Below, piece after piece: positions 23,380-60,574 of a stretch of 64,000 nt of DNA. The stretch is taken from the NCBI GenBank assembly GCA_964645775.1, contig CAZYBU010000001.1:115639-179638 (forward strand), in the 5' to 3' direction. Numbering within the stretch: the stretch's first letter is position 1; each line of letters starts with the position of its first letter. The position numbers and the translations under genes were made by a program. The notes beneath the pieces are model-generated. The model made no database searches and had not been told where the DNA came from. It saw nothing but the letters and a program-made list of their open reading frames with translations. Origin of the DNA: an uncultured Leptospirales bacterium (GTDB taxonomy: Bacteria; Spirochaetota; UBA4802; UBA5550).

Positions 23380-24333
23380 ATGACGAGAAAAAGAAAAAAC
23401 ATCCTAATAGCCATAGCCGTTGTCTTCAGTCTGCTTATACTTTACCGTTTTGGAGAACGGATTCATCACTGGGTAACCGGAGGAGAGCAGAAGGAAACCA
23501 TTTCCGAGGTCCCTGTGCGGGTACAGACCGCGGAGAGAACCGATCTCAGGAAAAAACTCAGGTTAACCGGTGACGTAAAAGGTTCTGAAGTGGTGAACCT
23601 CTTCGCCCAGGTGCCAGGGAAGATACGGAATATCCGGGTCAAGGAAGGCGACCGGGTCGTGAAGGGTCAGACAGTCATGACCATCAACCGGGACATCGTG
23701 GGGATGCACTACATGCCGGCTATCGTGGAGTCGCCCATTACTGGATACGTGGGGTCCGTACTGGTCGATCGTGGGATGACCGTAACCCAGACCATACCCC
23801 TGGGGCAGGTTGTGAGCATGGACCAGGTAGAGGTGATCGTCTACATAATCGAAGAGCAGATCAACCAGGTCAAGCTGGGAATGGAAGCTGAGATTCATGT
23901 TCAGGCCTTTCCGGACCGGGTCTTTAACGGCCGGGTGACCAAGAAGAGCGCCGTGGTCGACCCGGTAAGCCGGACCCAGAAGGTACATATTAACTTAATA
24001 AACAGGGACCTCTCCCTGCGGCACGGGATGTTCGCCACGGTCTACATCATCACCGATGTGAGGGAGGATGTTGTGGTCATTCCCGTGGATTCCCTTATGC
24101 AGGACAGGGAAGGGACGTGGTATGTTTACCTGGCAGTGGATAAAAAAGCCGTTCGTAGAGATGTTAAGTCCGGTCTTCGGGTAGAGAACAGTATTGAAAT
24201 ACGGGAAGGCCTCAAAGAAGGAGATCAGATCATAAACCTGGGAAAGGAGAACGTTTCAGAAGGAGATGTCCTGATCATTTACCGGGAAGAGAAAAAAGAA
24301 GAGAGAAAGGAGCCGGGCGATGAGACTGAGTGA
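23380..24333 (+). CDS. efflux RND periplasmic adaptor (MFP), apparently lacking the alpha-helical hairpin
   Basis: 317 aa. N-terminal TM anchor. Lipoyl-like VKEGDRVVKGQTVMTIN followed directly by beta-barrel/MP domains. No long coiled-coil segment. Confidence 0.75.
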   Translation: MTRKRKNILIAIAVVFSLLILYRFGERIHHWVTGGEQKETISEVPVRVQTAERTDLRKKLRLTGDVKGSEVVNLFAQVPGKIRNIRVKEGDRVVKGQTVMTINRDIVGMHYMPAIVESPITGYVGSVLVDRGMTVTQTIPLGQVVSMDQVEVIVYIIEEQINQVKLGMEAEIHVQAFPDRVFNGRVTKKSAVVDPVSRTQKVHINLINRDLSLRHGMFATVYIITDVREDVVVIPVDSLMQDREGTWYVYLAVDKKAVRRDVKSGLRVENSIEIREGLKEGDQIINLGKENVSEGDVLIIYREEKKEERKEPGDETE

Positions 24334-27300
24334 CCTTTCTGTTAACCGGGCCGTTTTCGCGGCCATGCTCTTTATCGGTCTTACGGTCATCGGAGGGGTC
24401 AGTTATTCCAAGATGGCTATCGACCTCTTTCCGGATATAGAGTACCCGGTAGCCATTATTATCACCGAGTATGAAGACGTGGGGCCCAAGGAGGTGGAGA
24501 GCACTGTTACCCGCCCCCTTGAGGAGGCCGTGGCAGGTATAAATAATATCGAGACCCTCTCGTCCCAATCATTCGAAGGTGTCTCTCTGGTAACCGTTGA
24601 GTTCGCCTGGGGAACCGACATGGGAGCCGGTGTGGCTGACATACGGGAGAAGCTTGATCTTATCAAGCAGGCCCTTCCCAACGAAGTTGGAACACCGATG
24701 GTACTCAAATTCGATGTTTCCATGATGCCAATCCTGATAATAGCGGTTACGGGTGAAAGGAGTATTCAGGATATTCGTAACTATGCCGAAGACCACCTGA
24801 AGAGCCGGTTTGAGCAGGTGGACGGCGTGGCCACGGCCGATGTCATCGGAGGGTACGAGGACGAGGTCAAGGTAGAGCTGGACCGTAACCGCATGGACGC
24901 CTACGGGATATCCATTGATACTATCACGCAGGTGCTTTTCCTTGAAAACATGAATACCGCCGGAGGAGAGGTAAAGACGGATATCATGAAGTACACCCTC
25001 CGTACCCGTGGAGAGTTCCAGACCCTGGATGACATTCGAAACGTTGTTGTGGGAGTTAAAAACAGGACCCCGGTCTATCTGAGTGACATCGGGCGGGTTT
25101 ATATGGGACCCGAAGAGAAGGACAATATAGTGCGGCTAAACGGTCATGACGGTGTTATCATGATACTGCGGAAGCAGTCGGACATGAACACGGTCCAGGT
25201 TGCCCGCAGGGCCGTAAAGAGACTGGATGGAATTCAGGAGAACCTTCCCGCGGGGATCGGGCTGAACGTCTTTTTCAACCAGTCCGAGTACATAGAGAAA
25301 TCGATCAATAACCTGATCCGGACCGCCATCCAGGGAGGTGTAATCGCCATTTTCGTAGTCTTCATTTTTCTTCGAAGCATGCGCGCGGCTTTGATACTGG
25401 GCCTGTCGATACCCCTCTCCATTATTATAACCTTTATCGGTATGTATATCTTTGATCTCTCCCTGAATATGATGTCCCTGGGGGGGTTGGCCCTGGGCGT
25501 GGGGATGCTTATAGACAATTCCATTGTTATTTTGGAGAACGTTTTCCGATTCAGGGAACGAGGGGCTCGTCCCATGGAGGCGGCGAAACTGGGCGCCGAT
25601 GAAATGGCCATGGCCATCACTGCGTCAACATTGACCACTATCTCGGTCTTTCTTCCCTTCCTCTTTACCGAGGGCCTGGCCGGGCAGCTTTTCAAGGACA
25701 TGGCCCTCACCATCGCCTTCTCCCTCCTGGCTTCTCTTCTGGTGGCCCTGACCCTGGTCCCTATGATGACTTCCCGGGTCATAAAGGTGCTCCATCCTGC
25801 CTACGGGGACCGAATCCCGGTGGTGGGACGCCTGTTGGACTGGACGGATAAGGCCTTTCATGAACTGGAATACTACTATGGAAGGGTCATCCGATGGGCC
25901 CTGTCACATCGTAAACGGGTGGTAGCCTATACAGGTATGGCGATAGTTATCGGTCTTGTACTACTTCCCTTTGCCGGAATGGAGTTTATTCCGGAACAGG
26001 ATGAGAACCGGCTTACCTTCTATGTGGAGCTTCCCGTGGGGACCAACCTGGAGAGCACGGAAGAAGTCATGAAGATGGTGGAGAAACGGGTCATGAACGT
26101 CTTAAAGAAGGATGAATACGCGGGACTCAATGTCCGGGCCGGGCAGGGAACCGGGATCTCCGCCGTTTTCAGTGAGACAAAGGACCATATGGGAAAGGTT
26201 GAGATCCGCTTTACGGGTCAGAGCGAACGGGAACGATCCGACAATGAGCTGAGAAAGATTCTGAGATTGGCTCTCCGGGACGTGCCCGGCGCGAAGATAA
26301 ACTTTTCCCGGGGTGGCAGGGAAGGAGGCGGGCTGGGAGGATCTTTTATCACGGTGGAGATCTATGGCTACGACCTGGAGGACGCGGCCTCCTATACCCG
26401 GGAGATATACCGGGCCCTCGAGAAGATCCCCGGTGTCTACGATCTGGAAATATCGAGGGAGGAGGGACTACCTGAGAAACAGATTATTATTAACAGAGAC
26501 AAGGCCTCCAAGATGGGCCTTAATACTACTGTCGTGGCTAATATGGTAAAGGACAGTGTGGCAGGCAAGAAGTCGACTATCTACAGAAAGGAAGGGGAAG
26601 AGTATGACGTGGTCGTCCGTCTGCGGGAAGAGGACAGAAGGACCATACGGGACATACTTTCCCTGAAGATACAGACTCCCACGGGGGACGCCGTTCCCCT
26701 GGGAAACATTATTAACATAAAAACCATAAGTGGACCCACGGCCATTGAACGTAAGAAACAGGAGCGGGTTGTCTTCATAAACTGCAAGGCGGAAGGGAGG
26801 GACCTCAGGAGCGTGGCCCTGGACATGAAAAAGGTCATCAGGAATATTGTTCCACCGAAGAACTTCCATGCCCGGGTGGCCGGCTCCTATGAGGACATGA
26901 ACGAGTCCTTCCGGGATCTTTCGCTCGCTCTTCTTCTGGCAGTGGTCCTGATCTACATTATCATGGCTTCCCAGTTCGAGTCTCTCTGGGCGCCTTTTAT
27001 CATCATGGTGACCATGCCGACCATGATCTTCGGTGTTTCCTTTTTCCTGTTCCTGACGGGAACGACCTTTAATGTTATATCCTTCATGGGGGTGCTGATG
27101 CTTGCCGGCATTGTGGTTAACAACGCCATTGTCTACGTGGACTACACGAACATTCTGCGAGCCCGGGGGAAAAGCCTCCATGAGGCCCTTTCCACGGCCG
27201 GTGAACTGCGATTACGACCCATCCTGATGACCACCTTCACGACCATCTTCGGCCTGGTGCCCATGGCCATAGGACTGGGGGAAGGATCGGAGCTGACCAC

Positions 27301-27442
27301 ACCCCTGGCGCGTGCCGTTATCGGGGGATTGAGCTCATCGTTCATCTTTACTCTGGTCTTTCTTCCGGTAGTCTATTCCCTGCTGGAGCAGATCAAGGAG
27401 AGCATACAGGCCCGGCTCGCCCGTGCAAAGGGAGGATATTGA
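24320..27442 (+). CDS. RND efflux transporter permease (AcrB/HAE1-like, 12 TM)
   Basis: 1040 aa. N-terminal MRLSDLSVNRAVFAAMLF and two large periplasmic loops flanked by TM bundles, as in AcrB. Confidence 0.88.
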   Translation: MRLSDLSVNRAVFAAMLFIGLTVIGGVSYSKMAIDLFPDIEYPVAIIITEYEDVGPKEVESTVTRPLEEAVAGINNIETLSSQSFEGVSLVTVEFAWGTDMGAGVADIREKLDLIKQALPNEVGTPMVLKFDVSMMPILIIAVTGERSIQDIRNYAEDHLKSRFEQVDGVATADVIGGYEDEVKVELDRNRMDAYGISIDTITQVLFLENMNTAGGEVKTDIMKYTLRTRGEFQTLDDIRNVVVGVKNRTPVYLSDIGRVYMGPEEKDNIVRLNGHDGVIMILRKQSDMNTVQVARRAVKRLDGIQENLPAGIGLNVFFNQSEYIEKSINNLIRTAIQGGVIAIFVVFIFLRSMRAALILGLSIPLSIIITFIGMYIFDLSLNMMSLGGLALGVGMLIDNSIVILENVFRFRERGARPMEAAKLGADEMAMAITASTLTTISVFLPFLFTEGLAGQLFKDMALTIAFSLLASLLVALTLVPMMTSRVIKVLHPAYGDRIPVVGRLLDWTDKAFHELEYYYGRVIRWALSHRKRVVAYTGMAIVIGLVLLPFAGMEFIPEQDENRLTFYVELPVGTNLESTEEVMKMVEKRVMNVLKKDEYAGLNVRAGQGTGISAVFSETKDHMGKVEIRFTGQSERERSDNELRKILRLALRDVPGAKINFSRGGREGGGLGGSFITVEIYGYDLEDAASYTREIYRALEKIPGVYDLEISREEGLPEKQIIINRDKASKMGLNTTVVANMVKDSVAGKKSTIYRKEGEEYDVVVRLREEDRRTIRDILSLKIQTPTGDAVPLGNIINIKTISGPTAIERKKQERVVFINCKAEGRDLRSVALDMKKVIRNIVPPKNFHARVAGSYEDMNESFRDLSLALLLAVVLIYIIMASQFESLWAPFIIMVTMPTMIFGVSFFLFLTGTTFNVISFMGVLMLAGIVVNNAIVYVDYTNILRARGKSLHEALSTAGELRLRPILMTTFTTIFGLVPMAIGLGEGSELTTPLARAVIGGLSSSFIFTLVFLPVVYSLLEQIKESIQARLARAKGGY

Positions 27443-27863: not shown

Positions 27864-30800
27864 TTATCTGCGCCCCATGAGTCTCTGGATGTCCATGTGG
27901 ATGAGATAGATCGAAGGTGTGAAGAGCAAAGTTATCACTGTGGCAAAGAGAAGTCCGTAGGCCATAGCCATGACCGTGGGCACGATGGCGTTGGATGTGC
28001 CTCCAATCCCGTAGACAGTCGGTAAAAGACCAAGGACCGTGGTCAAAGTCGTAAGAATAACTGGACGAAGCCGCTGGCGGGCACCGTCAATGATTCTCTT
28101 GATGGGGAATTCACTGTTATCCCGTATCTCACGGTTGATAAAATCGATCATTACCACGTTATCGTTTACCACAACCCCGGAAAGACCGATGATACCGACA
28201 ATGCCCATGAAGGTCAGCGGTATGCCGTGCAGGGTAAAGGCCAGGAGGGCCCCGATTATACTGAAGGGTATGGTTATCATGATAAGGAGCGGCTGGCTGA
28301 CCGACCGGAAAAGAACCGTAAGCATAAAATAAATCATAACAATGGCAATGGAGAAAGCCCTGCCGAGACCTCCCAGGGACTCTTCGGTCTCCTTGGCCTC
28401 TCCTCCCATGGTAATGGATACTTCCGGATGGGCTTGTATGGTCTGGGAGAACCGGGTCAGTACCTTCTCCGCTACCTGTGACGATGTGATCTGCTTCTCG
28501 TCCACGTTTGCTGTTATGGTGATGACACGGTCCCCGTTATAGTGGTTGATGACCGATTTACCTGTCTGCTTTTCAATCCTGGCCACTTCACCGAGACGAA
28601 TAAGACGTCCAAACTGGTTAGGTATGAGAAGGTTCTCGATAAATTTCCTGTCTCTCTTGTATCGTTCGTCAACCTGTACGCGGAAATCGAGGGTGTCCTC
28701 AATGGTCTCGATAGATGTGGCAACACTCCCCTCATAGGCGACTCGGACCGTCTGGGCCACGGTCGCGACATTCAGGCTGAATTGAGCAAGACGTTCATAA
28801 TCAAAGGAGATATTCAACTCCTTCTTGCCCGCTTTCTGGTCATTGGTAACGTCAAAGACACCGGGAAGGGTTTCAAGGTATTCTTCGATATCCTTCTGGA
28901 TTTTGCCGGTCAGGGTCATATCCTTGCCGATGATCTTTATGTTGACAGGTTCCCCTGTTGGCGGACCCAAAGACATCTTCTCGTAGAGAATCCGGGTGAA
29001 AGCTGGATACGTATCAATATTGATTTCTTTGCGGAGATTATGAATGATCCTTTCGGCTGTCCGGTCTCGTTCGGTCCTGGGAACAAGGACAACGATTATC
29101 TGGGACCAGTTTTCATGGGCACCTTTCAGATCACCGGGTCTAACATCGTGTGTCCCCAGGATAATCCGTGTGGATACCATCTCATTCTCCGGTACGACCT
29201 CCCTAAGGTCTTTCTCCACCTTAAGGGAGAGGGTGTCCATGTACTCCTGGCTTGTCCCGTCCGGCGCCTCAAGATTTATATAAATTCTGTCGGAAGAATC
29301 GTCCCAGAAGAGGACAAAACCACGGATGGTCTCCCTGGATATGAACAGAGTTCCCACGAGACCGGCAATTATCAGAAGAACCATGAAATATCTGAATTTC
29401 AGAACTCTTGCAAGGAAACGGCTGTACCATTTTTCCAGTACGGAGAACCATCCTCCTCCTGTTACCTTCAAGGCTTTGCCCTGTTTATTCTTTTTGGACC
29501 CGTGTATGAGATGATTTGGAAGGAGAAAATAGCCCTCAAAGAGAGAAGCAAGAAGGGCCACGGTGATGACGAGGGGAAAGATGAAAATGACCTTGCCCAT
29601 CATCCCTTTGATGGCAAGCATTGGAAGAAAAGCCACGATGGTTGTTGTTATGGATACTGTCACAGGAGCGATAACTCTTCTTACTCCATTTGCAGCGGCA
29701 TCAAGGGGAGGAAGACCCCGCTCCCGTTCCACGAAAATTGCTTCACCGATAACGATACCGTCATCCACCAGTATTCCGAGAATGGTTACAACAGCGGCTA
29801 TGGAAACCAGGTTAAGGGTTATGCCATAGAGGTTCATCCCGATGAGGGTAATCATGAGACTGATCGGTATGGCCACGGCTATCCAGAAGGAAGAACGGAG
29901 ATTCAGAAAAAACAGGAGTACCAGAACAACCAGTATGAAACCTATAGCAGCGTTCCCGAGAACGGCATTGAGCATGGAGGATATGGAATCGGATTGATCG
30001 TTAATGATTTCAGCCTGGAATTCGGAATCTATAAGTGGATCGGTTTCAATAAATGTTCTGACGTTTTCCGCCGTGGTGATGATATCCGCGTTTTCATTTT
30101 TCACGATTTCAAGGATAATGGCCCTTTTGCTGTTAACACGGGTCAAACTTGTTGTTTGTTTAAACCCGTAGGAGACGTCGGCGATATCCTGTATGCGGAT
30201 CTTCTTTCCCTCGAAGTTTGAACGTATTATAACATCCCTGACATCCAGGGGATCTTCAAACTCACCGATGGTGACAATGGTCTGCTCGTTCTGAAGGGAC
30301 TGCAGGGTTCCGCCCGTTGCGCGAACGTTTCTCGCGCGGATACTGTCTACTACGTTATTCAGTGACACGTAGTAGCTGTCCATCTTAGTAAGATCGACAT
30401 CGATATGGACCTCTCTTTCCCGGTATCCGTATTTTCGAACCGAACTGACCCCTTCAATCTTGAGGAGAAGTTCTTCCATTTTATCGGACTGATAGTTTAG
30501 CCTGTATTCGTCAGGCTCTGATTCTCCACGGGACATAACGGCAATGTGCATGATACCCATCATTTTGGGATTGAGGTCCAGAATCTTGAGGGTTTCGACG
30601 TCTTCGGAAATGGATGGAATATTTGAGGTCGTTATGTTCCGGAATACCTCGTCCTTGACAGCCTGCTTGTTCTGGAGGTCGTAGTCGAGGAAAAGAGCGA
30701 TGGTTCCCAGGTTTTCGATGGAATAGGATGAGAAGTAACGGATACCGGATATCTTTCTCAGCTCCTTTTCGATCGGTATAACAGCGTTCATCTCTACGTC

Positions 30801-30974
30801 ACGGGAACTGGCACCTGGATACACTGCATAGATGACCATTTTGTCCATGTCGACCGAAGGGTACATCTCCCGGTTGATGTTTGTGCTGCTCATGATACCG
30901 GCAAAAAAGATAAAGATCATGATCAGGTTGACCAGGAGTGTGTTGCCGGCGAAGAAGCGTAGAATGCGATTCAT
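27864..30974 (-). CDS. second RND efflux transporter permease
   Basis: About 1036 aa from MNRILRFFAGN (the ORF extends to 31001). AcrB-like 12-TM topology. Confidence 0.82.
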   Translation of the reverse strand: MNRILRFFAGNTLLVNLIMIFIFFAGIMSSTNINREMYPSVDMDKMVIYAVYPGASSRDVEMNAVIPIEKELRKISGIRYFSSYSIENLGTIALFLDYDLQNKQAVKDEVFRNITTSNIPSISEDVETLKILDLNPKMMGIMHIAVMSRGESEPDEYRLNYQSDKMEELLLKIEGVSSVRKYGYREREVHIDVDLTKMDSYYVSLNNVVDSIRARNVRATGGTLQSLQNEQTIVTIGEFEDPLDVRDVIIRSNFEGKKIRIQDIADVSYGFKQTTSLTRVNSKRAIILEIVKNENADIITTAENVRTFIETDPLIDSEFQAEIINDQSDSISSMLNAVLGNAAIGFILVVLVLLFFLNLRSSFWIAVAIPISLMITLIGMNLYGITLNLVSIAAVVTILGILVDDGIVIGEAIFVERERGLPPLDAAANGVRRVIAPVTVSITTTIVAFLPMLAIKGMMGKVIFIFPLVITVALLASLFEGYFLLPNHLIHGSKKNKQGKALKVTGGGWFSVLEKWYSRFLARVLKFRYFMVLLIIAGLVGTLFISRETIRGFVLFWDDSSDRIYINLEAPDGTSQEYMDTLSLKVEKDLREVVPENEMVSTRIILGTHDVRPGDLKGAHENWSQIIVVLVPRTERDRTAERIIHNLRKEINIDTYPAFTRILYEKMSLGPPTGEPVNIKIIGKDMTLTGKIQKDIEEYLETLPGVFDVTNDQKAGKKELNISFDYERLAQFSLNVATVAQTVRVAYEGSVATSIETIEDTLDFRVQVDERYKRDRKFIENLLIPNQFGRLIRLGEVARIEKQTGKSVINHYNGDRVITITANVDEKQITSSQVAEKVLTRFSQTIQAHPEVSITMGGEAKETEESLGGLGRAFSIAIVMIYFMLTVLFRSVSQPLLIMITIPFSIIGALLAFTLHGIPLTFMGIVGIIGLSGVVVNDNVVMIDFINREIRDNSEFPIKRIIDGARQRLRPVILTTLTTVLGLLPTVYGIGGTSNAIVPTVMAMAYGLLFATVITLLFTPSIYLIHMDIQRLMGRR

Positions 30975-30975
30975 C

Positions 30976-32472
30976 TCAGTAGACCAGGTCCTGGTAATCA
31001 AAATTAAGATCGATAAGCTTACGTCTGATCTGGAGGATTTCGATCTTCTCCTGGGCTATCCGGTTTTCACTGTCCAGGACGTAAGTGAGATTAAGGCGGG
31101 CCATGTTGTATTTTCTGTATTCGGTCCTTAGTTTGGCTTCGAGGGCCTGAAGGTTCAGCTTCTTGTACCGCAGGCTGCGTTTGATACTTTCAGCCATCTC
31201 GCCGATGTTGGAAAGTCCCTGTTCATACTTCCTCCGGGATATCTCGTACTCATGGTTAAGCTGTTTTTTAAGTATTCTGGATTTCCTGTAGTCGGCCTTG
31301 CCTTCATGGTTGCCGATCGGATAGGTCAGCATCAGGCCGACTTCCAGGCCCACGTTTTCGCTGGATGTAAAAATCTTTCCAAAAGCGGCCCCGGCTTCGG
31401 GGTCCATTCCCTTTTTAGATACCTGGGCCATGAGGCTGAGCTGGGGCAGGGTTTTATTTCTGCCGGCTTTCTCAGCCATGTCAAGGCGCCGCATGGAATA
31501 CTGGTATATTCGCCAGTTGCCTGTTTTTTCGAAGGGGACGGGACTGAATTCCCTGGCCATGGATTTTTCTACGTACTTTTCAAAGGTAGATTCATCTGGA
31601 ATATATTTTTCCGTGTCAATGTAGGGATAGAGGTTAACATTTATTTGTTTAAAAGTCGATTTCAGGGTGTTCAACTGGTCCAGGTAGGTGTAGAGTGCCA
31701 GGTTAGATTTATTTACGTCATCCAGGTCGGCCATTCCCGAACGGTAATGACGCTGAACAGTAGCAACGATCCTTCTCGTGTTTGTAATGGTGCCTTCCAG
31801 TATTTCGATGATCCGCTGGTAAAGGATCCAATCGAAATAGAGTTTCCGGTAGTAGGTCTGAATGGATTTTCTGTACTGTTCCTGCCGGATCTTTTCAATT
31901 TCAGATTCAAACTTCGCGTCCTTTTCCGGGAAACGGTCGAGAAGTCCGAAGGAATTATAGAGGAGAGGTTGAGCCACTCCCACGTAGATTACCGGCTGGT
32001 AAAGGGTTTCATCAAAATGACCGCTCAATGAGGCGGGAGGAGACGTGTCATAATCATAGCTGGAATCCAGAATGCCGAATTTTACACCGGTCTTTAATCG
32101 TGTACCTGTTCTGGCGAAAGTCCGGGAAACACCGGTATCGACCTGAAGGCCGTGCACGCGGGAATGCGCGTTTATCTCTCCATCGATGGCAACCCCCAGG
32201 TCCCCGGAGCCGGAAAGAGACATGGAGGTATTGTCTAAAATATACTTTGTCTCCGATTCAAGGGTCCAATCCTCGATCTTTTTTTCTCTGTTGATCTTGT
32301 TTTCGGCCAGCAACTCTTCCATCTCGCTTTTCTTTAGTTCAGGAAGTTCATTTTTAAGAATCTGGCAATACTGTTCAAAGCTGATGGCTGTTTTATTTTC
32401 AGCGCTGTCCCGGGCCTCAAGGGAGAGGGGACTCACGGCAAGGATTATGAAGAGGAGGGTACACTGTTTCAT
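30976..32472 (-). CDS. TolC-like outer membrane efflux protein
   Basis: Start set at MKQCTLLFIILAVSPLSLEA (signal peptide). Two-repeat coiled-coil-rich architecture. Ends 1 nt before the RND start. Confidence 0.55.
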   Translation of the reverse strand: MKQCTLLFIILAVSPLSLEARDSAENKTAISFEQYCQILKNELPELKKSEMEELLAENKINREKKIEDWTLESETKYILDNTSMSLSGSGDLGVAIDGEINAHSRVHGLQVDTGVSRTFARTGTRLKTGVKFGILDSSYDYDTSPPASLSGHFDETLYQPVIYVGVAQPLLYNSFGLLDRFPEKDAKFESEIEKIRQEQYRKSIQTYYRKLYFDWILYQRIIEILEGTITNTRRIVATVQRHYRSGMADLDDVNKSNLALYTYLDQLNTLKSTFKQINVNLYPYIDTEKYIPDESTFEKYVEKSMAREFSPVPFEKTGNWRIYQYSMRRLDMAEKAGRNKTLPQLSLMAQVSKKGMDPEAGAAFGKIFTSSENVGLEVGLMLTYPIGNHEGKADYRKSRILKKQLNHEYEISRRKYEQGLSNIGEMAESIKRSLRYKKLNLQALEAKLRTEYRKYNMARLNLTYVLDSENRIAQEKIEILQIRRKLIDLNFDYQDLVY

Positions 32473-32629: not shown

Positions 32630-34462
32630 ATGATCTACGCATCAACCATGGAGCTGGTCCGGGGGCTTGAAAAACAGGGCGATCTTATTCGAATAAAGGA
32701 TGAGATAGACCCTTTCCTGGAAATGGGAGAAATCCAGCGCAGGGCCTACAGGTCAGGAGGGCCGGCCCTTCTCTTTGAGCGGGTAAAGGGCTCTCCCTTC
32801 CCGGCTGCCTCAAACCTTTTCGGAACACCGGAACGGATACGGTACATTTTCCGGGACACGATCGATGGAGTGAAAAGGGTCATGGAGATCAAAGGGGACC
32901 CTTCCTCTGTGTCAAAAAATCCACTGAAGGTTCTCTCCCTTCTGCCCGTCCTTTACCATGGTCTTCCGAAAAGGGTCTCGGCCCGTCGCACACCTTCCCT
33001 GTGGAGAACAACAACTCTTGATAAGCTGCCCGGTATTGTCTCCTGGAAAAAGGACGGTGGGCGATACATTACTCTGCCCCAGGTCTACACGGAAGGTCCG
33101 GAGAGCAGAGGCCCCCTGGGATCGAACCTGGGGATGTACAGGGTCCAGCTGGACGGCAACGACTACGGTCCCACGGAGGTGGGGCTGCACTACCAGATAC
33201 ACAGGGGTATCGGGCATCATCATTACGAGCATCTCAGGCGGAAACTTCCGATGCGGGTCAGTATCTTCATCGGGGGGTCTCCCGCCATGACCCTGGCCGC
33301 GGTCATGCCCCTTCCGAAAGACGTTCCCGAGGTTGCCTTCGCCGGACTTTTGGCCGGAAGGCGCTTCCGGTATTCACTTAACGATGGATTTGTCGTTTCG
33401 GCCGACGCGGACTTTGTCATAACGGGATGGATACGTCCCGGCGCGGTTAAACCTGAGGGCCCCTTCGGGGACCACCTGGGATATTACAGCCTTGTTCATG
33501 AGATGCCGGTCATGGAGGTGGAAGCGGTCTATCACCGTAAGGACGCGGTTTGGCCCTTCACGGTCGTAGGACGGCCTCCCCAGGAGGACACGGAATTCGG
33601 TTCCTTTATCCATGATATTACCGGTCCTGCCGTGCCGGCCGAGGTCCCGGGTCTGCATGAGGTCCACGCCGTGGATGAGGCGGGCGTCCATCCCCTGCTC
33701 CTTGCCATAGGATCGGATCATTACGTTCCCTACATGGCACGATCCCGGCCTGCCGAGCTTCTTACTATAGCCAACGGGATCCTCGGTTCTGGCCAGCTAT
33801 CCCTGGCCAAGTTTCTCCTTATCGCCGCCAGGGAGGATGCCGGGACTCTCACGACAAAGGATGTGAAAGGATTCTTTACCCATATCCTGGAGCGCATTCA
33901 GCTGGAGCGGGATATCCATTTTCATACCAATACCACCATCGATACCCTCGATTACTCGGGTGACGGCCTTAACCGGGGTTCAAAAGTTATCCTGGCGGCC
34001 GCTGGCAGGCCTGTCAGGAAACTGAAAGATCGTGTTCCGGAACATCTTACCCTGCCGGCGGGATTTTCCGATCCTGAAGTGATTATGCCGGGTATCATGG
34101 CTGTCAGGGGACCGGATTTTGAAAAGGAAGGTGATGAGATGGACCGCCTCACGCTCCACCTGGAACAGGTCCGAAAGATGGACGATTTTCCTGTGATCGT
34201 TGTTGTAAATGACAGCCGGTTCTGCGCCGGGGACTTCAGCAACTTTCTCTGGGTGACCTTTACCCGGTCCAACCCCGCTTCAGATATCTACGGAGTCAGG
34301 AGTTTCACGGAGAACAAACACTGGGGCTGTCACGGTCCCCTGCTCCTGGATGCCCGCGTAAAGTCCCATCACGCGCCTTCTCTGGAGGAGGACCCGGATG
34401 TAAACGAGCGGGTGGACCGGATTATCGAAGCGTGCCCGGAGATTGTGAAAAAGAGCGGGTAA
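32630..34462 (+). CDS. UbiD-family (prenylated-FMN) decarboxylase with extended C-terminus
   Basis: 610 aa. N-terminal ...LVRGLEKQGDLIRIKDEIDPFLEMGEIQRRAY...GPALLFERVKGS is typical of UbiD. Confidence 0.8.
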   Translation: MIYASTMELVRGLEKQGDLIRIKDEIDPFLEMGEIQRRAYRSGGPALLFERVKGSPFPAASNLFGTPERIRYIFRDTIDGVKRVMEIKGDPSSVSKNPLKVLSLLPVLYHGLPKRVSARRTPSLWRTTTLDKLPGIVSWKKDGGRYITLPQVYTEGPESRGPLGSNLGMYRVQLDGNDYGPTEVGLHYQIHRGIGHHHYEHLRRKLPMRVSIFIGGSPAMTLAAVMPLPKDVPEVAFAGLLAGRRFRYSLNDGFVVSADADFVITGWIRPGAVKPEGPFGDHLGYYSLVHEMPVMEVEAVYHRKDAVWPFTVVGRPPQEDTEFGSFIHDITGPAVPAEVPGLHEVHAVDEAGVHPLLLAIGSDHYVPYMARSRPAELLTIANGILGSGQLSLAKFLLIAAREDAGTLTTKDVKGFFTHILERIQLERDIHFHTNTTIDTLDYSGDGLNRGSKVILAAAGRPVRKLKDRVPEHLTLPAGFSDPEVIMPGIMAVRGPDFEKEGDEMDRLTLHLEQVRKMDDFPVIVVVNDSRFCAGDFSNFLWVTFTRSNPASDIYGVRSFTENKHWGCHGPLLLDARVKSHHAPSLEEDPDVNERVDRIIEACPEIVKKSG

Positions 34463-46821: not shown

Positions 46822-49800
46822 ATGAATTATATCAATGTCAGTCACAGCCGCAGATACAGCGGAACGATTAGCGGTAGATCAAGTGAAATCCAAGATAGAT
46901 TTCCCGCCTCAAACATCCTTGAAGAGGATGGATTCTGGTCCACCCAGGTCCGGGAATCACCGATCTCCGAATATGTCATAATTGATTATGGAGAGGATGT
47001 GTTCATCGATTATGTAGAGATACATCCTGTAACCGAACAGCCTTCTGGTTTCCCTTCGTATTTCCATTTGGAGTGCAGTGATGACACTTCCGTCTGGAGG
47101 ATACTGCTCACCGAGAAAGAGTATAATACCGATGGGACCCCATACCGAGTAGATCTGCCCCTTACGCGTACGAGGTACGTTAAATTTGCAGCACCTCGTT
47201 CATGTGAAATGGAAAAAAAATTTCAGATCCGGGTAGCCCGTATCGAGGCCGGAATCTCCGGAATACTGGAACTGGATGCCACGAGCAGCGAGCAGGAACA
47301 TGATGTTAAGAACCTCCTTTCCGATAACAACCGGGAGACGTGGCTTTCAAGTCCAAAAAGCAATCCCTCACGGGAGACTCTGAACATAGACCTGGGAGAC
47401 GTTTACGGAGTAAACCGGATTATCCTGGAATCATCCCTGAAGGGTTTCCCCGCCAATATCACCATCGAAACAAGCGCGGGTGAAGATGTCTGGACAATTC
47501 TCCATGATGAGAAAGGATTCCTGGCTGAATCTTTCAAAAAGTATTACTGGGAAGAGGGTGTTATCCAGGCCCGTTTTATCCGCGTGGAAATGTCCACTAC
47601 GCCCTTCTTCGAGAACCGGCATCAGGTTCAGCTCGCCTCCCTCGAGATCTGTGCCGCTCACCTGGAAGAAAACCATTCACATAATATTGGAGAGCTTACA
47701 ACGCACGCTTCAGTCTTTATGCCAGGAATGGTAAGACTCGCTCGTGATGGTGAAGAAACAATGGGGACAGCCGTTCAGGCCAATGACCGTCGTCTTAGGG
47801 ACGCTACGGAACTTTTCAAGGGGATTGTTCGTTTCGCTGAAGAAGGCGAGTCTGAACCGCTCGTAGCTCTCCAGTCGTCAGATCCGAGGGTACAGCCGGC
47901 CACAGGGGAACAATACGGCATAGTGCGTCTGGCTTTTGACAGGGAGACCAAACCGGGTAGTGTGATCCAGGGAAGTGATTCGCGGCTTCAGCACGCTACA
48001 CCGGATAATTTTGGTATTGTCCGAATTTGTCCCAATGGCGAATACATGGAAAGTGGAGTCATTACCGGTAATGACTGCCGTCTTCAGAAGGCAACGACAG
48101 ACGAGCCAGGAATAAGCCGTATTGCCAAAAATGGAGAGTCTTCCCATGATGCCGTTGTTAGCTCCACGGACAGAAGACTTTCTCACGCGGGGACCACATC
48201 TTATGGAATTGTTATACTTGCGGGAGACGGGGAGGAGAACGAGGGAAAGGTTATTCAGGCTAATGATCGTCGATTAAAAGATGCAACAACCCTGGCGCCC
48301 GGTATTGTTGAGCTTGCGGAGGACGGGGAGGAGAGCCCGGGAACCGTTGTTCAGGGTAATGACCGCCGTCTTCGGGACGCCACCACGGAATCAAAGGGGA
48401 TCGTTGAGCTTGCGGAGGACGGGGAGGAGAAGAACGGAACCGCTGTCCAGGGTAATGACCGCCGTCTTCGGAACGCCACCACGGAATCAAAGGGGATTGT
48501 GGAACTGGCAGAGAACGGAGAGAAGAATCCGGGGGTTGCCGTTCAGGGTAACGATCGCCGGCTGGAAGATGCTACCATAATTTCTACCGGCATTGTTCGT
48601 CTGGCTTCGGATGGAGAAGAGGCTGAAGGTTCCGCTGTTCAGGGCAATGACCGTCGACTTCGGGAGGCAACGACAATTTCTACCGGCATTGTTCGTCTGG
48701 CTTCGGATGGAGAAGAGGCTGAAGGTTCCGCTGTTCAGGGCAATGACCGTCGTCTTCGGGACGCTACCACGGAATCGAAGGGCATTGTAGAGCTGGCCGG
48801 GGATGGGGAGGATAAGCCGGGTACCGCTGTACAGGGTAACGACCATCGTCTCAAGGAAGCGACGACAGTCTCTACAGGTATTGTTCGTCTGGCCCTGAAC
48901 GGTGAGGAGACGGAAGGGGCGGCTGTTCAGGGTAACGACAGTCGTCTTCGGGACGCCACCACGGAATCGAAGGGCATTGTAGAGCTGGCCGGGGATGGAG
49001 AGGATAAACCGGGTACCGCTGTCCAGGGCAGCGATCGTCGTCTCCGTGACTCCAGCACGACATCAAAAGGTATAGTAGAGCTGGCGGAGGATGGGGAAAG
49101 CGTCCCTGGAGTCGTTGTTCAGGGTAATGATTCCAGACTACGGATAGGAACAGAAGAATATCCCGGGATTCTGCGTGTCGCTCCTGCCGGGGTCTCCCGG
49201 GAAGGACTTGTGGTGCAATCCAATGATCCACGGCTTGTGGACTCGAGAGAACCCCTTCCCCATGAACATGAGTACGCTCCTCTGCATCATCGACTGGAAG
49301 ATCATGAGGGTATCCTGGCGGTGGATGACAGCAGGGCCATGAAATTTATGGATGTTAATCCTCCTTTGTCCGATTCATCCGTGATTTACGGTAAAAACAA
49401 ATCGGAGGGAACGGGAGCTATCGGTATAACCGGAACGGTTCGTCCCGGGAATGGCAAGAAATCTACCGCTTACGGGGTAGTGGGCGATAGTTTGCATATC
49501 GGGGTCCGCGGACAGGCAACAGGAGATTCCGATTCCCGGGGATGCGGAGTGGCCGGCCTCGCCAGGAGTGGTCATGGAGGAGCTTTCCTGAGCGAGCATG
49601 GGTATTCACTCATGGTCGATGGATATGGCCGGGAAACAAACAGTCTGGATGAAACAATTAATCTTAAAGGGGATGGGAAAGCCCTTTATGTGGATGGTGC
49701 GTCATTTTTTAAAGGTCAGGCTACTTTTCAGTTCAGCAGGGATGAAGCGACCGGAAACCTGGTAGAGTTCTTTGAGGTGGATGACGAAGAGTATATTTCC

Positions 49801-50154
49801 CCTGGTGATATCCTGGTTGTAAGCGACCGGGGAAAATCGATGCTGTCGAAATCACGTATCACATATAACCGGTCTGTTATAGGAGTTGTTTCTGACACTC
49901 CGGCTGTTATTCTTAATGGTGCACCTGAGGGGAAGGTATATGCCGTTGCCCTCGCCGGTAAGGTGATGTGTAAAGTGGATGCCCGGAACAAACCCATACG
50001 GCCTGGAGATTTCATTGTCACATCGGACACTCCCGGCTGCGGGATGAGCGGAAAAATCGATTCTTTTGATAAAATAGGCACTGTCCTGGGCAAGGCCCTG
50101 GATGGGCTGGAGGAGGGGCTGGGGACCATCCCTCTTTTTATTCAGCCTATGTAA
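46822..50154 (+). CDS. giant repeat protein with 2x discoidin (F5/8 type C)-like domains, 16 tandem 32-aa repeats and a unique C-terminal domain
   Basis: 1110 aa. No signal peptide. The region from aa 30 to about 290 shows two galactose-binding-like modules. 16 x G[IV]V[ER]LAxDGE...VQGNDRRLRDAT repeats. 300-aa Gly-rich C-terminal domain. Confidence 0.8.
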   Translation: MNYINVSHSRRYSGTISGRSSEIQDRFPASNILEEDGFWSTQVRESPISEYVIIDYGEDVFIDYVEIHPVTEQPSGFPSYFHLECSDDTSVWRILLTEKEYNTDGTPYRVDLPLTRTRYVKFAAPRSCEMEKKFQIRVARIEAGISGILELDATSSEQEHDVKNLLSDNNRETWLSSPKSNPSRETLNIDLGDVYGVNRIILESSLKGFPANITIETSAGEDVWTILHDEKGFLAESFKKYYWEEGVIQARFIRVEMSTTPFFENRHQVQLASLEICAAHLEENHSHNIGELTTHASVFMPGMVRLARDGEETMGTAVQANDRRLRDATELFKGIVRFAEEGESEPLVALQSSDPRVQPATGEQYGIVRLAFDRETKPGSVIQGSDSRLQHATPDNFGIVRICPNGEYMESGVITGNDCRLQKATTDEPGISRIAKNGESSHDAVVSSTDRRLSHAGTTSYGIVILAGDGEENEGKVIQANDRRLKDATTLAPGIVELAEDGEESPGTVVQGNDRRLRDATTESKGIVELAEDGEEKNGTAVQGNDRRLRNATTESKGIVELAENGEKNPGVAVQGNDRRLEDATIISTGIVRLASDGEEAEGSAVQGNDRRLREATTISTGIVRLASDGEEAEGSAVQGNDRRLRDATTESKGIVELAGDGEDKPGTAVQGNDHRLKEATTVSTGIVRLALNGEETEGAAVQGNDSRLRDATTESKGIVELAGDGEDKPGTAVQGSDRRLRDSSTTSKGIVELAEDGESVPGVVVQGNDSRLRIGTEEYPGILRVAPAGVSREGLVVQSNDPRLVDSREPLPHEHEYAPLHHRLEDHEGILAVDDSRAMKFMDVNPPLSDSSVIYGKNKSEGTGAIGITGTVRPGNGKKSTAYGVVGDSLHIGVRGQATGDSDSRGCGVAGLARSGHGGAFLSEHGYSLMVDGYGRETNSLDETINLKGDGKALYVDGASFFKGQATFQFSRDEATGNLVEFFEVDDEEYISPGDILVVSDRGKSMLSKSRITYNRSVIGVVSDTPAVILNGAPEGKVYAVALAGKVMCKVDARNKPIRPGDFIVTSDTPGCGMSGKIDSFDKIGTVLGKALDGLEEGLGTIPLFIQPM
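47725..49260 (+). repeat. in-frame tandem array of 16 x 96-bp units
   Basis: Exact period of 96 nt. Units 10/11 (48589-48780) and 12/14 are nearly identical at the nucleotide level. Confidence 0.85.
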
Positions 50155-57380: not shown

Positions 57381-57735
57381 GGGGACGATCCGGTTTCGAC
57401 TGCAATGATGGATCGTCAGCTGCATGTCGAGCGCGCTGTCATCTCGTAAAAAATGGCAGGCAAAAGATAACTGCAAACGATAATTTTGCACTGGCTGCTT
57501 AAATAGCGGCCACGGAAGCCGGTTGGCTGCTCCTCTGAGTCGCCGGATTTCCGTCATAATCCAGAGGATAGCCGGATGCCCCGCCGTCAGGCTGAAGGCG
57601 AATCTTTAAGGCGGCTTGAGGATGATTACGGTGTCCTGTCCCGGTATCATCCTCGAGATTTAACGACAGGAATAAGCATGTAGACGCTGGCGGAACGTAT
57701 TGCAGGACGCGGGTTCGACTCCCGCCGTCTCCACA
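57381..57735 (+). ncRNA. ssrA: tmRNA (transfer-messenger RNA)
   Basis: 5' GGGGACGATCCGGTTTCGAC... 3' tRNA-like end GGACGCGGGTTCGACTCCCGCCGTCTCCA. Internal tag reading frame GCAAACGATAATTTTGCACTGGCTGCTTAA encodes ANDNFALAA*. Confidence 0.9.
57473..57502 (+). other. tmRNA tag-peptide coding segment (ANDNFALAA, stop TAA)
   Basis: Resume codon GCA at 57473, TAA at 57500-57502. Tag resembles the E. coli ANDENYALAA degradation tag. Confidence 0.8.
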
Positions 57736-57740
57736 TCAGG

Positions 57741-57868: not shown

Positions 57869-58510
57869 TTAAAATTTCTTCTGTTCAATGAGGTTAAGCC
57901 TGGCAAGCTGCGTAAAAAGACGGTTGCTGACCCTGTCCAGGTAGTGTTTGCGGGCGCTCTCCCCGTCAAAATCCCGGACCTCGAAGTATGACCTGCTGTG
58001 GTCCATGTAACGGATGTCCAGGTTCGTGTCCATAAAAGCGAGGACAGTATTGAAACTCATAAAACCCATCTGAGGATAGTATCCGCCATCCACCTCGTAA
58101 ATAAAAATACCATCCACTCCCTTTTCATCCATATAGGCTCTGAGCTTTTCACGGTTTCTCTGGACCGTAGTGGTGATCATTCCCAGGGTTTTATACTTTA
58201 AAAAGTCCTTCTCCTCGGATATCTGGTAAAACCTGTCATCGTAGCTGTTGAAACCGGAGAGAGAATTGATCTTGCCGGTGAACATCTTCAGTGTTACCTG
58301 TCCCTCGTATGTGGGCAGCCAGCGGGTAAGGGTCTCTTCATATTTTTCCCGGGGAATCAGAGAGTTCTCATCCAGGCGAAGCAGTAAACCCGCTGTTTCT
58401 ATCGACTCCAGGCTTCTCCTGATGCGCATATCTTCCTTTATTCCGTATCCCCTGCATGAAAGTATTGTCAGGATGGGGATCGTAAGAAAGATAAGAAGAA
58501 AGCGTTTCAT
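57869..58510 (-). CDS. lipoprotein, unknown function
   Basis: 213 aa. Signal peptide with lipobox LTILSC. Confidence 0.5.
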   Translation of the reverse strand: MKRFLLIFLTIPILTILSCRGYGIKEDMRIRRSLESIETAGLLLRLDENSLIPREKYEETLTRWLPTYEGQVTLKMFTGKINSLSGFNSYDDRFYQISEEKDFLKYKTLGMITTTVQRNREKLRAYMDEKGVDGIFIYEVDGGYYPQMGFMSFNTVLAFMDTNLDIRYMDHSRSYFEVRDFDGESARKHYLDRVSNRLFTQLARLNLIEQKKF

Positions 58511-58515
58511 GATTA

Positions 58516-59310
58516 TCAGAGTGATTTAAGAATTCGCTGACCGAAATCGGTGCAGGTTAGGTATACGGTATCATCACCGGAGTCATCATTCATTGAGAGT
58601 ACGTTAAAATGCCGCAGCCAGGTAATCAAATAGAAATCGATAAAGGAAATCTGGAACACGTCCCCACTGGAAGCGAAGCCTGTGATTTCAAAGAATTCGT
58701 TGGTTATCTCAACAAGATTGCCCCTTCCGCTTTGACGGGAGAGAAGGTCGCGGATGATATACCTGCAGTGCCAGAGTTCGTCGGCAGATCCAGGGTCTGA
58801 AGGAAAAATAACTTTCCAGTCTACCCGGTTCCAGAAGGCATCTATGAGACGGAAATAGATACCTGTAACGCTATCATCGCTGACATCCACTTCACCATTT
58901 TTAACCAGTACCATCTGGCCCTTTTTCAGAATGTTTATCATCTGTTTCGCGAAGATCGTGAGAATCTCATCGTCCCATGAGGCATGACGTCTCTCTTCCA
59001 GTCGCTCATCCCTGATGCATTTCTTATAAAAGGCATCGGGCAGGGTGCCTTCATTATCTGCGGTTGGATGGAGTTCCGTAATGCCATCAAGGAGTACACG
59101 GGCCATTACGGTGGCAAAAGATTCTTTTATGGGAATGAGCTCTTCCCTGCGGAAGAGGGGGGTCAATCCAGTATAATAGGTCTGTATGACAGTTTCGGTG
59201 TCACCGGGTAGTGGAGTGGACTCCGGTTCAAATTCATTCAGCCGAAAAAATGGATAGTGAGGGTTGGAAACTTGCCTCTTTTTATCGGTTGGTATCTTTA
59301 TTTTTCCCAT
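58516..59310 (-). CDS. hypothetical protein
   Basis: 264-aa ORF with no recognisable motif. 5 nt upstream of the lipoprotein gene. Confidence 0.45.
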   Translation of the reverse strand: MGKIKIPTDKKRQVSNPHYPFFRLNEFEPESTPLPGDTETVIQTYYTGLTPLFRREELIPIKESFATVMARVLLDGITELHPTADNEGTLPDAFYKKCIRDERLEERRHASWDDEILTIFAKQMINILKKGQMVLVKNGEVDVSDDSVTGIYFRLIDAFWNRVDWKVIFPSDPGSADELWHCRYIIRDLLSRQSGRGNLVEITNEFFEITGFASSGDVFQISFIDFYLITWLRHFNVLSMNDDSGDDTVYLTCTDFGQRILKSL

Positions 59311-59545
59311 CAGCGTTTTAATACTCAGAATATGTGTATTTCAAGAATTAATTACGCTAACGGCAATGTCCCTGCATTGTTCCTTACAGGATATACGTAT
59401 GTGTGTAACCGTCAGCCGTGAGGTGCTATTCAAATTAATTGATAAAACAGTTATAGTAAAATTAATATGACGTCAAGATAAATCTATAAAAAAAATATTT
59501 TTTTTGGAAAGCTCAGACCGCCAAGTCTCCATACAAGAGCATCGC

Positions 59546-60223
59546 TTAATTCCTGAGCATGGCTGCTGCGGTCTCTCCTGAAAGGTTGCCCTGAGCGGTC
59601 AGGGCCTGATCATTTTTCCTGGCTATGAGTTCACCGGTTACTCCGGTTGTCCGGAGAGCGGTTTCAACGTCAAGGTTAAAAGCGGGTGGAATTCCTGACT
59701 TGGCTGAAAGTTCAAAATTTCGTTCCCGGCTGATTTCGAGTCTCCCCCGCAACTTTCCCTGGATAGTGTCGAAACTGTCCGGGGGCACCCTTGCCCCCTG
59801 TTCCAGTCTGCCCCCAAGACGCACGAGATCATCTATTTCGGTGTCACCCGTGGTTACAGGTGGGGGTGGCAGGATGGTCATGGGTGATGTCCGGACATCA
59901 GCCTGCTGTGTGCGCTGATTTGTCCGGGATAGTGAAGTGAGATTAGCCATGGTCTCTTCCAGCTGACGTTTGTCCAGCTCCCCTGTCATTATAGTACGTG
60001 AGGCGATATTTCTGAGCTGGGAAGAGAGGACCATGGCCTCTTGTATGATGTTCATCGACATCCGGGACAGGGAAATGGCACGATTAACGGAACGGTTTGA
60101 GGTTGAAACAGGTTGCCGGAGTGGGGAATTATCAGGTGTACGATTTTCGGGCAGAGGCTGTGTCCTGTTGCCATGCAATCCCTGACCTGGAGTGAAACTG
60201 TTCACATCCTGGTGAATCTTCAT
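59546..60223 (-). CDS. hypothetical low-complexity (Pro/Thr/Arg-rich, probably disordered) protein
   Basis: Start set at MKIHQDV (60223) with GGAGGG RBS (plus 60229-60234). The ORF extends to 60247. No signal peptide. Confidence 0.45.
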   Translation of the reverse strand: MKIHQDVNSFTPGQGLHGNRTQPLPENRTPDNSPLRQPVSTSNRSVNRAISLSRMSMNIIQEAMVLSSQLRNIASRTIMTGELDKRQLEETMANLTSLSRTNQRTQQADVRTSPMTILPPPPVTTGDTEIDDLVRLGGRLEQGARVPPDSFDTIQGKLRGRLEISRERNFELSAKSGIPPAFNLDVETALRTTGVTGELIARKNDQALTAQGNLSGETAAAMLRN

Positions 60224-60257
60224 GATATCCCTCCCTGGGTATGGCACTGCTGCTGAC

Positions 60258-60301
60258 AGTATAATAATATATTGAGAAGGGGGGGGGTGTCAATTTTTTT
60301 T
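60258..60301 (-). promoter_or_regulatory. near-consensus sigma70 promoter whose spacer contains a 9-nt homopolymeric C tract (G9 on + strand)
   Basis: Minus strand reads A8-TTGACA-CCCCCCCCCTTCTCAA-TATATT. The spacer is 16 nt, with the G9 tract at plus 60279-60287. Lies about 35 nt upstream of the 59546-60223 gene. Confidence 0.55.
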
Positions 60302-60382
60302 ACTCGCAGGGAACATTCCTGTTTGTACCTTGACACGGCACACAAATAATGATTTTTCTGAAAGAGAATTATTCAGAGGGAA

Positions 60383-60574
60383 TTGCCCATGAAACAATGG
60401 ATACCTGTTCTTGTTTTGATAATCCTTTTCGGATGTTCAGAGGATAAAAGGAACAGTGTGCCCCTTGACCAGGTAAAACCGGATGGATCAAGTGATTACA
60501 GGTATATTTTCCGTGATATCCTGAAAAAAGAGCAGGAGGAGAAGGCGCGTGAAGAGAGAAACCAGTTCAGATAA
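60383..60574 (+). CDS. possible small lipoprotein
   Basis: 63 aa. Signal peptide plus lipobox LFGC. Overlaps the htrA start. Uncertain. Confidence 0.3.
   Translation: MPMKQWIPVLVLIILFGCSEDKRNSVPLDQVKPDGSSDYRYIFRDILKKEQEEKAREERNQFR

Follow-up and report, generated by a model that had tools for sequence, protein, structure and literature searches.

A conserved sigma-70-type promoter with a lineage-specific and probably incidental C9 tract in its spacer

The DNA analyzed here is a 64-kb stretch of contig CAZYBU010000001.1 (the window, hereafter), and the element in question is a homopolymer of nine cytosines on its minus strand (C9, which reads G9 on the plus strand) lying between the −35 and −10 hexamers of a near-consensus promoter. 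An earlier note on the same DNA had proposed that this tract is a phase-variable switch, slipped-strand mispairing changing the spacing of the hexamers and thereby toggling the promoter. The site is located in a divergent intergenic region whose flanks are as that note described them: on one side a minus-strand open reading frame (ORF) at 59546-60223 with its ribosome-binding site (RBS), and on the other an ORF for a lipoprotein of 61 amino acids (aa), followed by HtrA. The features of the promoter and of the gene downstream of it are the following, with spacer lengths in nucleotides (nt):

60294-60301, minus strand: A8 tract just 5′ of the −35, read directly from the sequence, resembling a proximal UP-element subsite
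60288-60293, minus strand: −35 hexamer TTGACA, 6/6 in a consensus scan
60279-60287, minus strand: C9 homopolymer (G9 on the plus strand), spacer nt 1-9
60272-60278, minus strand: rest of the spacer, TTCTCAA, of which TTCTC is kept in the sister-species locus L003 (see below)
60264-60271, minus strand: overlapping −10 hexamers from the consensus scan, inside the AT-rich run TATATTATTATACT
60271..60266, minus strand: −10 TATATT with a 16-nt spacer, 11/12 together with TTGACA
60269..60264, minus strand: −10 TATTAT with an 18-nt spacer, 11/12 together with TTGACA
60224-60259, minus strand: predicted 5′ untranslated region (5′UTR), its start estimated from the −10 position
60229-60236, minus strand: RBS AGGGAGGG, 5′ of the 225-aa ORF
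59546-60223, minus strand: putatively regulated gene, encoding a 225-aa helical protein of an uncharacterized family (ORF plus RBS AGGGAGGG)

Read directly, the minus strand from 60301 to 60266 is A8-TTGACA-C9-TTCTCAA-TATATT, that is, AAAAAAAA-TTGACA-CCCCCCCCC-TTCTCAA-TATATT, and the fuller reading is gagtAAAAAAAA-TTGACA-CCCCCCCCC-TTCTCAA-TATATT-ATTATACTG. The TTGACA, the C9-containing 16-nt spacer, the TATATT and the upstream A-tract reported earlier were thus confirmed letter for letter. The single 16-nt register stood only in part, as TATATT at 16 nt exists but the overlapping TATTAT at 18 nt had gone unmentioned. With a perfect −35, either −10 gives 11 of the 12 sigma-70 consensus positions at a 16- or 18-nt spacing, and C9 fills spacer positions 1-9 of TTGACA-N16/18-TATATT/TATTAT, the arrangement of the spacer homopolymers of porA and tp0126 (see below). 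Transcription would start near 60257-60259, and the A8 tract at 60294-60301 may function as an UP-element.

Counted within the window, neither half of the site is exceptional. G9 is the sole G/C run of at least 8, as the earlier note had it and as our count over the whole window bore out, the next longest being two G7 runs at 7153-7159 and 25480-25486. Since a zero-order model predicts 0.41 runs of at least 9 per window, the tract alone is statistically unremarkable. Likewise, the C9 promoter is the only sigma-70 match of 11/12 or better on the two strands scanned, and, because first-order Markov simulations predict 0.52 such sites per window, the hexamer match alone is not significant; what lifts the promoter above chance is its conservation at orthologous and paralogous loci. 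G/C runs of at least 6 are under-represented in the window (12 observed vs. about 24 expected), no other run of at least 8 was found in its 64 kb or in 130 kb of related loci, and the region shows no sign of richness in phase variation. The earlier note had allowed that the tract might be a sequencing artefact. However, an independent Logan assembly (run SRR7048223; locus L001) agrees with the window at all 6,161 base pairs (bp) compared (100%), the C9 among them, which the Logan contig spans unbroken. We discarded a sequencing or assembly artefact on the evidence of two assemblers and two samples, the second sample having T+C8 in a tract of equal total length.

To compare the promoter with those of its relatives, we used loci at three distances. 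The window and L001 come from the same sample, while L002 (ENA ERZ1757541) comes from a different one; L003 and L004 represent a sister species in two Joint Genome Institute (JGI) metagenomes; L006, L010 and other distant loci were reached via the better-conserved 264-aa protein of the partner gene, and further distant loci came from a metagenome scan with the family alignment. Close relatives of the 225-aa protein were only two among 5.8 billion proteins. Over 9,455 bp, L002 differs from the window by 74 substitutions and not a single gap (99.2% identity), and L003 and L004 share 79-80% nucleotide identity with it. At these distances, the block GAGTAAAAAAAATTGACA (A-tract plus TTGACA) is 100% identical in L002, L003, and L004, the −35 TTGACA is invariant across L001-L004, and L002-L004 likewise agree with the window in the 24 nt that separate the −35 from the block TATACTGTCAG, in the 5′UTR CAGCAGTGCCATACCCAGGGAGGGATA and in the start of the gene. 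The RBS, too, is identical in L003 and L004. Particularly, the segment 60192-60251 shows 97% identity to L003, against a background of 60-87%. Between the motifs, the intergenic positions are saturated with substitutions in the relatives and the motifs are intact, which is the pattern expected of a spacer that is free in sequence and fixed in length.

The same layout extends well beyond the close relatives. Both L006 and L010 have an A-rich stretch at the position equivalent to A8 and a TTGACA about 60-73 nt 5′ of the ATG, and most of L014-L023 read TTGACA-N17-(TGn)TACYTT, that is, with an extended −10. Altogether, TTGACA, a spacer of 17-19 nt and a −10 precede the homologous genes in about 15 distant metagenomic loci (L006, L009, L010, L014-L023). 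An RBS of the CAGGGAGGG type is kept family-wide, and (C)AGGGAGGG nearly everywhere. The orthologues therefore retain both the elements of the sigma-70 promoter and their position relative to the gene. Because this layout is found before homologous genes in distant loci, our data support the view that the site is a real, ancient promoter belonging to the gene family, its activity being predicted from the sequence. This upholds the promoter call of the earlier note, whose A-tract and TTGACA are conserved in the relatives together with the −35-to-block distance, the 5′UTR and the RBS. Exact-match scans of metagenome and genome contigs with the conserved 22-nt 5′UTR/RBS block gave no matches, a scan of a species-representative genome collection with the 264-aa protein alignment gave no relatives, and an exact-sequence look-up of the 61-aa lipoprotein, aimed at extra contigs spanning the tract, returned no record.

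The tract itself behaves differently from the motifs that flank it. Its nine positions read CCCCCCCCC (C9) in the window and L001, TCCCCCCCC (T+C8) in L002, and TTTCTTCCA in L003 and L004, and its total length is 9 nt in every assembly compared (window, L001-L004), so the difference between the window and L002 is a substitution and not an indel. Of the roughly 15 other promoters of the family listed above, none contains a G/C homopolymer between its −35 and −10. Orthologous promoters of the relatives do without C9, and the maintenance of the tract that goes with the porA/tp0126 type is not seen here. The earlier note had pointed to related genomes as a place to look for heterogeneity in tract length, and none was seen across three assemblies of two strains, a comparison of consensus sequences only and of low power: the interrupted tract of L002 and the TTTCTTCCA of the sister species have the same length as C9. 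C9 is specific to the window's lineage, and the spacer appears to be constrained in length rather than in sequence.

Next to the tract, the −10 region determines what a change in length would do. The run TATATTATTATACT holds 5/6 TAnnnT hexamers at offsets 16, 18, 21, and 24, and we simulated tract lengths from C5 to C13 in silico for the spacing of these 5/6 hexamers. From C5 to C11, there is always at least one of them at 16-18 nt: C8 places TATTAT at 17 nt, C9 has its two hexamers at 16 nt and 18 nt, and C10 places TATATT at 17 nt, while at C12 or longer the hexamers fall outside 16-18 nt. Since the overlapping hexamers keep a usable register throughout C5-C11, slippage should not shut the promoter down; with one or two units gained or lost it should stay on, and a slip of one would if anything improve the spacing. 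The slippage toggle of the earlier note is at odds with this arithmetic, in which C8 and C10 both lie at 17 nt. The effect of slippage would probably be that of a modest rheostat, tuning rather than toggling expression. L003 has one good −10 only, TATACT with an 18-nt spacing, and in the alignment it occupies the same columns as TATTAT of the window. Given that this tract-free sister species has its −10 at 18 nt, the 16-nt register is probably not ancestral.

The gene that the promoter would drive had been called uncharacterized, and it belongs indeed to a family of which an exhaustive profile search recovered about 70 representatives, 220-240 aa long and none of them reaching a relevant Pfam model; homologous genes are present in L002-L004 and L006-L025. 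Members share the motifs MKIxTDV at the N-terminus, DALSIAQMSQxIIQKAMxxSSRLRxIA in the central helix, and NPxxALxAQGNI toward the C-terminus. The label "disordered" given to the protein did not hold, as AlphaFold2 returned a confident, mostly helical structure: the helical core at residues 41-175 has a predicted local distance difference test (pLDDT) mostly >90, and confidence is low only in the first 40 or so residues and in parts of the C-terminus. The predicted fold may be like that of the D1 domain of flagellin/FlgL. The protein does not match the flagellin sequence models Flagellin_N and Flagellin_C (bac_flagellin); no flagellin family is among the 25 listed of the 36 Pfam families matched by the 44 members scanned at E ≤1, and the window's protein had no Pfam match at E ≤0.1 and no NCBIfam match. 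A profile search of the PDB put flagellin C-termini in register, at insignificant E-values of 0.16-0.27. A signal peptide is not predicted for this conserved protein, which is not a typical or obvious variable surface antigen. The gene is probably highly expressed, and its RBS, CAGGGAGGG, may be similar to the CsrA site that overlies the Shine-Dalgarno sequence in Bacillus subtilis hag. Regarding gene models, the JGI calls of the orthologue (P0002, 171 aa; L003 2110-2625, L004 781-1296) are N-terminally truncated: read from the conserved ATG, which with its RBS is found 162 nt 5′ of the called start (L003 1948), the protein has 225 aa and is collinear with that of the window.

Elements of this kind are already well known (porA, tp0126, hif, fim), and the present one is at best another case. 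As in porA of Neisseria meningitidis, a G/C homopolymer lies in a sigma-70-type spacer, where slippage would change the −35/−10 distance. Expression of porA is high with 11G, 2-fold lower with 10G and 13-fold lower with 9G, and the wild-type switching frequencies are about 2×10^-5 (PMC3639595); the effect is graded and not strictly ON/OFF. However, porA has a single −10 register and shortening progressively kills the promoter, whereas the overlapping hexamers here keep C5-C11 usable. Moreover, the length of the porA tract is demonstrably variable, in contrast to the lack of observed length variation and of conservation among relatives here, and the product here is not a known surface antigen. 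As even the single-register porA loses only 2-fold per 1 nt and 13-fold per 2 nt, any effect at C9 should be modest. In Treponema pallidum, tp0126 (an OmpW homologue) has a poly-G between −35 and −10 with optimal transcription at 17 nt, and 76% of 17 tested tracts, nominated with a cut-off of at least 8, varied within isolates (PMC7864442). C9 falls in the same length range (9). The poly-G tracts of T. pallidum are common to all subspecies, except for the one associated with tprL, which is deleted in pertenue (PMC7864442). Thus, the T. pallidum tracts are shared and vary within isolates, while C9 is absent in the sister species, interrupted in L002 and invariant in length among the assemblies compared. 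The tprL tract overlaps the −10 and acts other than by spacing, whereas C9 sits in the spacer; and the T. pallidum genes (tp0126, tprE/G/J, tprL) encode outer-membrane proteins, unlike the protein encoded here, for which a flagellin-like fold and no signal peptide are predicted.

Other systems place simple repeats in or beside the promoter spacer, such as the poly-C of Bordetella fim and the poly-A of Mycoplasma hyorhinis vlp. In Haemophilus influenzae, TA repeats lie in the spacer shared by the two overlapping, divergent fimbrial promoters of hifA and hifB, a system reportedly described by van Ham and colleagues in 1993. The present site resembles hif in having a simple repeat in a promoter spacer within a divergent intergenic region. 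Unlike in hif, the tract belongs to the minus-strand promoter only and lies about 44 nt upstream of a plus-strand TTGACA (60331-60336), which has no −10 at a conserved distance in L003; on these grounds we rejected a hif-like shared divergent promoter. That TTGACA is contained in a block, TGTCAAGGTACAAACAGGAA (minus-strand reading, window 60310-60350), about 40 nt 5′ of the −35. L003 has this block without any change, and it could serve as a site for a regulator or belong to the promoter of the lipoprotein/htrA side. What defines hif, fim and vlp is variation at the level of the population.

We consider it fairly probable (about 0.65) that the promoter is strong and conserved and that the C9 in its spacer is incidental and largely neutral. 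A conserved near-consensus sigma-70-type promoter, with its A-rich UP-like tract, TTGACA and AT-rich −10, would drive the 225-aa gene, and a pyrimidine-rich spacer, represented by TTTCTTCCA in the sister species, would have drifted or been homogenized into C9 in the window's lineage. Like any G/C run this long, C9 would be physically prone to slippage, but a slip of one or two units would keep a good hexamer at 16-18 nt and change the strength of the promoter only modestly. Both the neutrality of the tract and the size of any slippage effect are what we infer from the comparisons above. C9 is therefore best explained as an incidental feature of the spacer and not as an evolved ON/OFF contingency switch. 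The phase-variable switch of the earlier note found no support, being weakened by the restriction of the tract to one lineage, its constant length and the buffering by alternative registers; it is improbable, though not refuted. Several points should make one cautious about this conclusion. C9 is located between −35 and −10 exactly as in porA and tp0126, and its length is above the cut-offs used to nominate phase-variable loci, which are at least 7 G/C in PhasomeIt (PMC6321876) and at least 8 in T. pallidum (PMC7864442). To get from TTTCTTCCA to C9, six changes in 9 nt are needed, all of them towards C, a stronger bias than simple drift would give and one that selection for the tract might explain. 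The comparison rests on two strains and one sister species, and consensus assemblies hide minority variants, among which switching at frequencies of about 2×10^-5 would be invisible. A shift from 16/18 to 17 nt could change expression severalfold and be biologically meaningful, as in porA-mediated immune escape. Finally, flagellum-related genes are phase-variable in several bacteria.

The same points feed the alternative that C9 is a genuine phase or rheostat element of the porA/tp0126 type, its slippage altering the −35/−10 spacing so that subclones differ in expression, with C9 as the lower state (16/18 nt) flanked by the higher 17-nt states C8 and C10. The tract lies wholly inside the spacer of a near-consensus promoter, exceeds the published cut-offs and arose by changes all towards C, and the arithmetic that predicts C8 and C10 as optimal would make the effect of slippage graded. 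A precedent is found in tp0126 of the spirochaete T. pallidum, with its 17-nt optimum (PMC7864442), and the organism studied here is possibly a spirochaete as well, given the weak matches to the Pfam families TP_1001_2nd and LIC10012_N in neighbouring genes of related loci, a weak hint of Spirochaetota. Nevertheless, we regard such an element as unlikely, though not far-fetched: the three assemblies of two strains show no length polymorphism, L002 has the tract interrupted and neither the sister species nor any other family promoter carries it, the overlapping −10 hexamers leave no OFF state within two units on either side, no further candidate contingency tracts occur nearby, and the product is not an obvious surface antigen. 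Decidedly doubtful, too, is the more specific form of it, a porA/tp0126 variant buffered on both sides in which C8 and C10 reach 17 nt via alternative overlapping −10s and control a flagellin/FlgL-fold protein.

It is very improbable that the C/G run acts otherwise than by spacing, as a regulator site, as non-B DNA, as a rigid G:C segment or through coupling of divergent promoters. Its location in a divergent intergenic region would suit such a role, and the upstream block TGTCAAGGTACAAACAGGAA, conserved in L003, could be a regulatory site. Yet it is the flanking motifs that are conserved and not the sequence of the tract, in the sister species as in the family, no repeat or palindrome involves the tract, and nothing in the data points to a binding protein. 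Hardly credible at all is the absence of a functional promoter, with hexamers and tract a product of chance or of sequencing. The counts would allow it, as one 11/12 match per 64 kb is near the expected 0.52 and one G/C run of at least 9 is near 0.41. However, conservation of the −35, A-tract, spacing, 5′UTR, and RBS is perfect in a genome that has diverged by about 20%, homologues in many unrelated metagenomes are preceded by the same architecture, and an independent assembler recovered the tract, which another sample has as T+C8. On the conservation evidence, we rejected a chance promoter.

So far, phase variation through a promoter spacer has been described chiefly in pathogens adapted to a host, such as Neisseria, Haemophilus, Bordetella, and Treponema pallidum. 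If C9 were a true switch, this mechanism would extend to a new family of flagellin-like proteins and to an uncultured lineage that apparently lives free or in a gut community. As the site is better read as a conserved promoter with an incidental tract, it serves rather as a caution that a homopolymer in a spacer does not by itself make a switch, and that the conservation of the tract, its length polymorphism and the −10 register need to be checked. The by-products of the analysis are perhaps of more lasting use: a well-defined and widely conserved two-gene module, comprising the protein with the predicted flagellin/FlgL fold and one with predicted winged-helix domains, whose consensus promoter and RBS recur throughout the family, and an unusually conserved leader of about 200 nt before the second, 264-aa gene. 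The neighbouring genes and the elements of this leader region are as follows:

58516-59310, minus strand: partner gene, encoding a 264-aa protein with predicted winged-helix domains, conserved
57869-58510, minus strand: third co-oriented gene, encoding a 213-aa predicted lipoprotein (MKRFLLIFLTIPILTILSC...), syntenic in L001-L004
60389-60574, plus strand: 61-aa lipoprotein ORF, followed by an HtrA/DegP-type protease
59311-59513, minus strand: conserved intergenic region, 93-98% identity to L003
59476..59471 and 59455..59450, minus strand: second promoter-like element, TTGACG-15 nt-TATAAC, within 59311-59513
59488-59505: palindrome A8-TA-T8, preceding TTGACG-15-TATAAC
within 59311-59513, minus strand: leader of about 150 nt of the 264-aa gene, conserved in L003

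The genes for the 225-aa and 264-aa proteins are separated by a gap of 235 bp, most of which is the conserved region 59311-59513. This is the most conserved stretch of the locus, the background and flanking genes having 60-87% identity to L003, and one of its motifs, ATAGATTTATCTTGAC, recurs in the very distant L009. The structure predicted for the leader, with a z-score of only −1.6, has a 3′ hairpin that takes in the AUG of the 264-aa gene, and the leader comparison is one of three near-identical sequences and hence without covariation. Rfam matched none of the intergenic regions at its gathering thresholds, nor at E ≤1. The region is a candidate for a leader regulating in cis or for a small RNA. 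A search for an intrinsic terminator after the 225-aa gene predicted none, and the DNA there folds no better than shuffled sequence. Because a second promoter-like element precedes the 264-aa gene, the C9 promoter may serve the 225-aa gene alone. The 213-aa lipoprotein gene may be co-transcribed with the genes upstream of it. In searches against Pfam, NCBIfam and PDB sequences, no significant family was found for the 225-, 264-, 213-, or 61-aa proteins.

Some further observations concern the surroundings of the locus. Just past the end of the 213-aa lipoprotein gene, and convergent with the minus-strand genes, lies the gene for transfer-messenger RNA (57381-57736, plus strand; Rfam RF00023, 198.8 bits), with the tag peptide ANDNFALAA. 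On the other side, the 61-aa lipoprotein ORF overlaps the predicted GTG start of htrA (60549) by 26 nt (60549-60574). The overlap recurs in L001-L004, which suggests either that the two genes are translationally coupled or that the start of htrA is mis-called. Within about 10 kb of the module of the 225-aa and 264-aa genes, a gene at 46822-50154 (plus strand) encodes a protein of about 1,110 aa with an F5/8 type C (discoidin) domain, and an F5/8 type C protein is also found in the distant L006/L007 (8171-10795); its presence near the module in both places suggests a longer-range synteny. Elsewhere in the window, we found two adjacent, convergent genes for AcrB-type resistance-nodulation-division (RND) efflux pumps (24320-27442, plus strand; 27864-31001, minus strand), as well as genes for an aldehyde:ferredoxin oxidoreductase (4395-6269), a penicillin amidase (15812-18217) and a UbiD-family decarboxylase (32630-34462).
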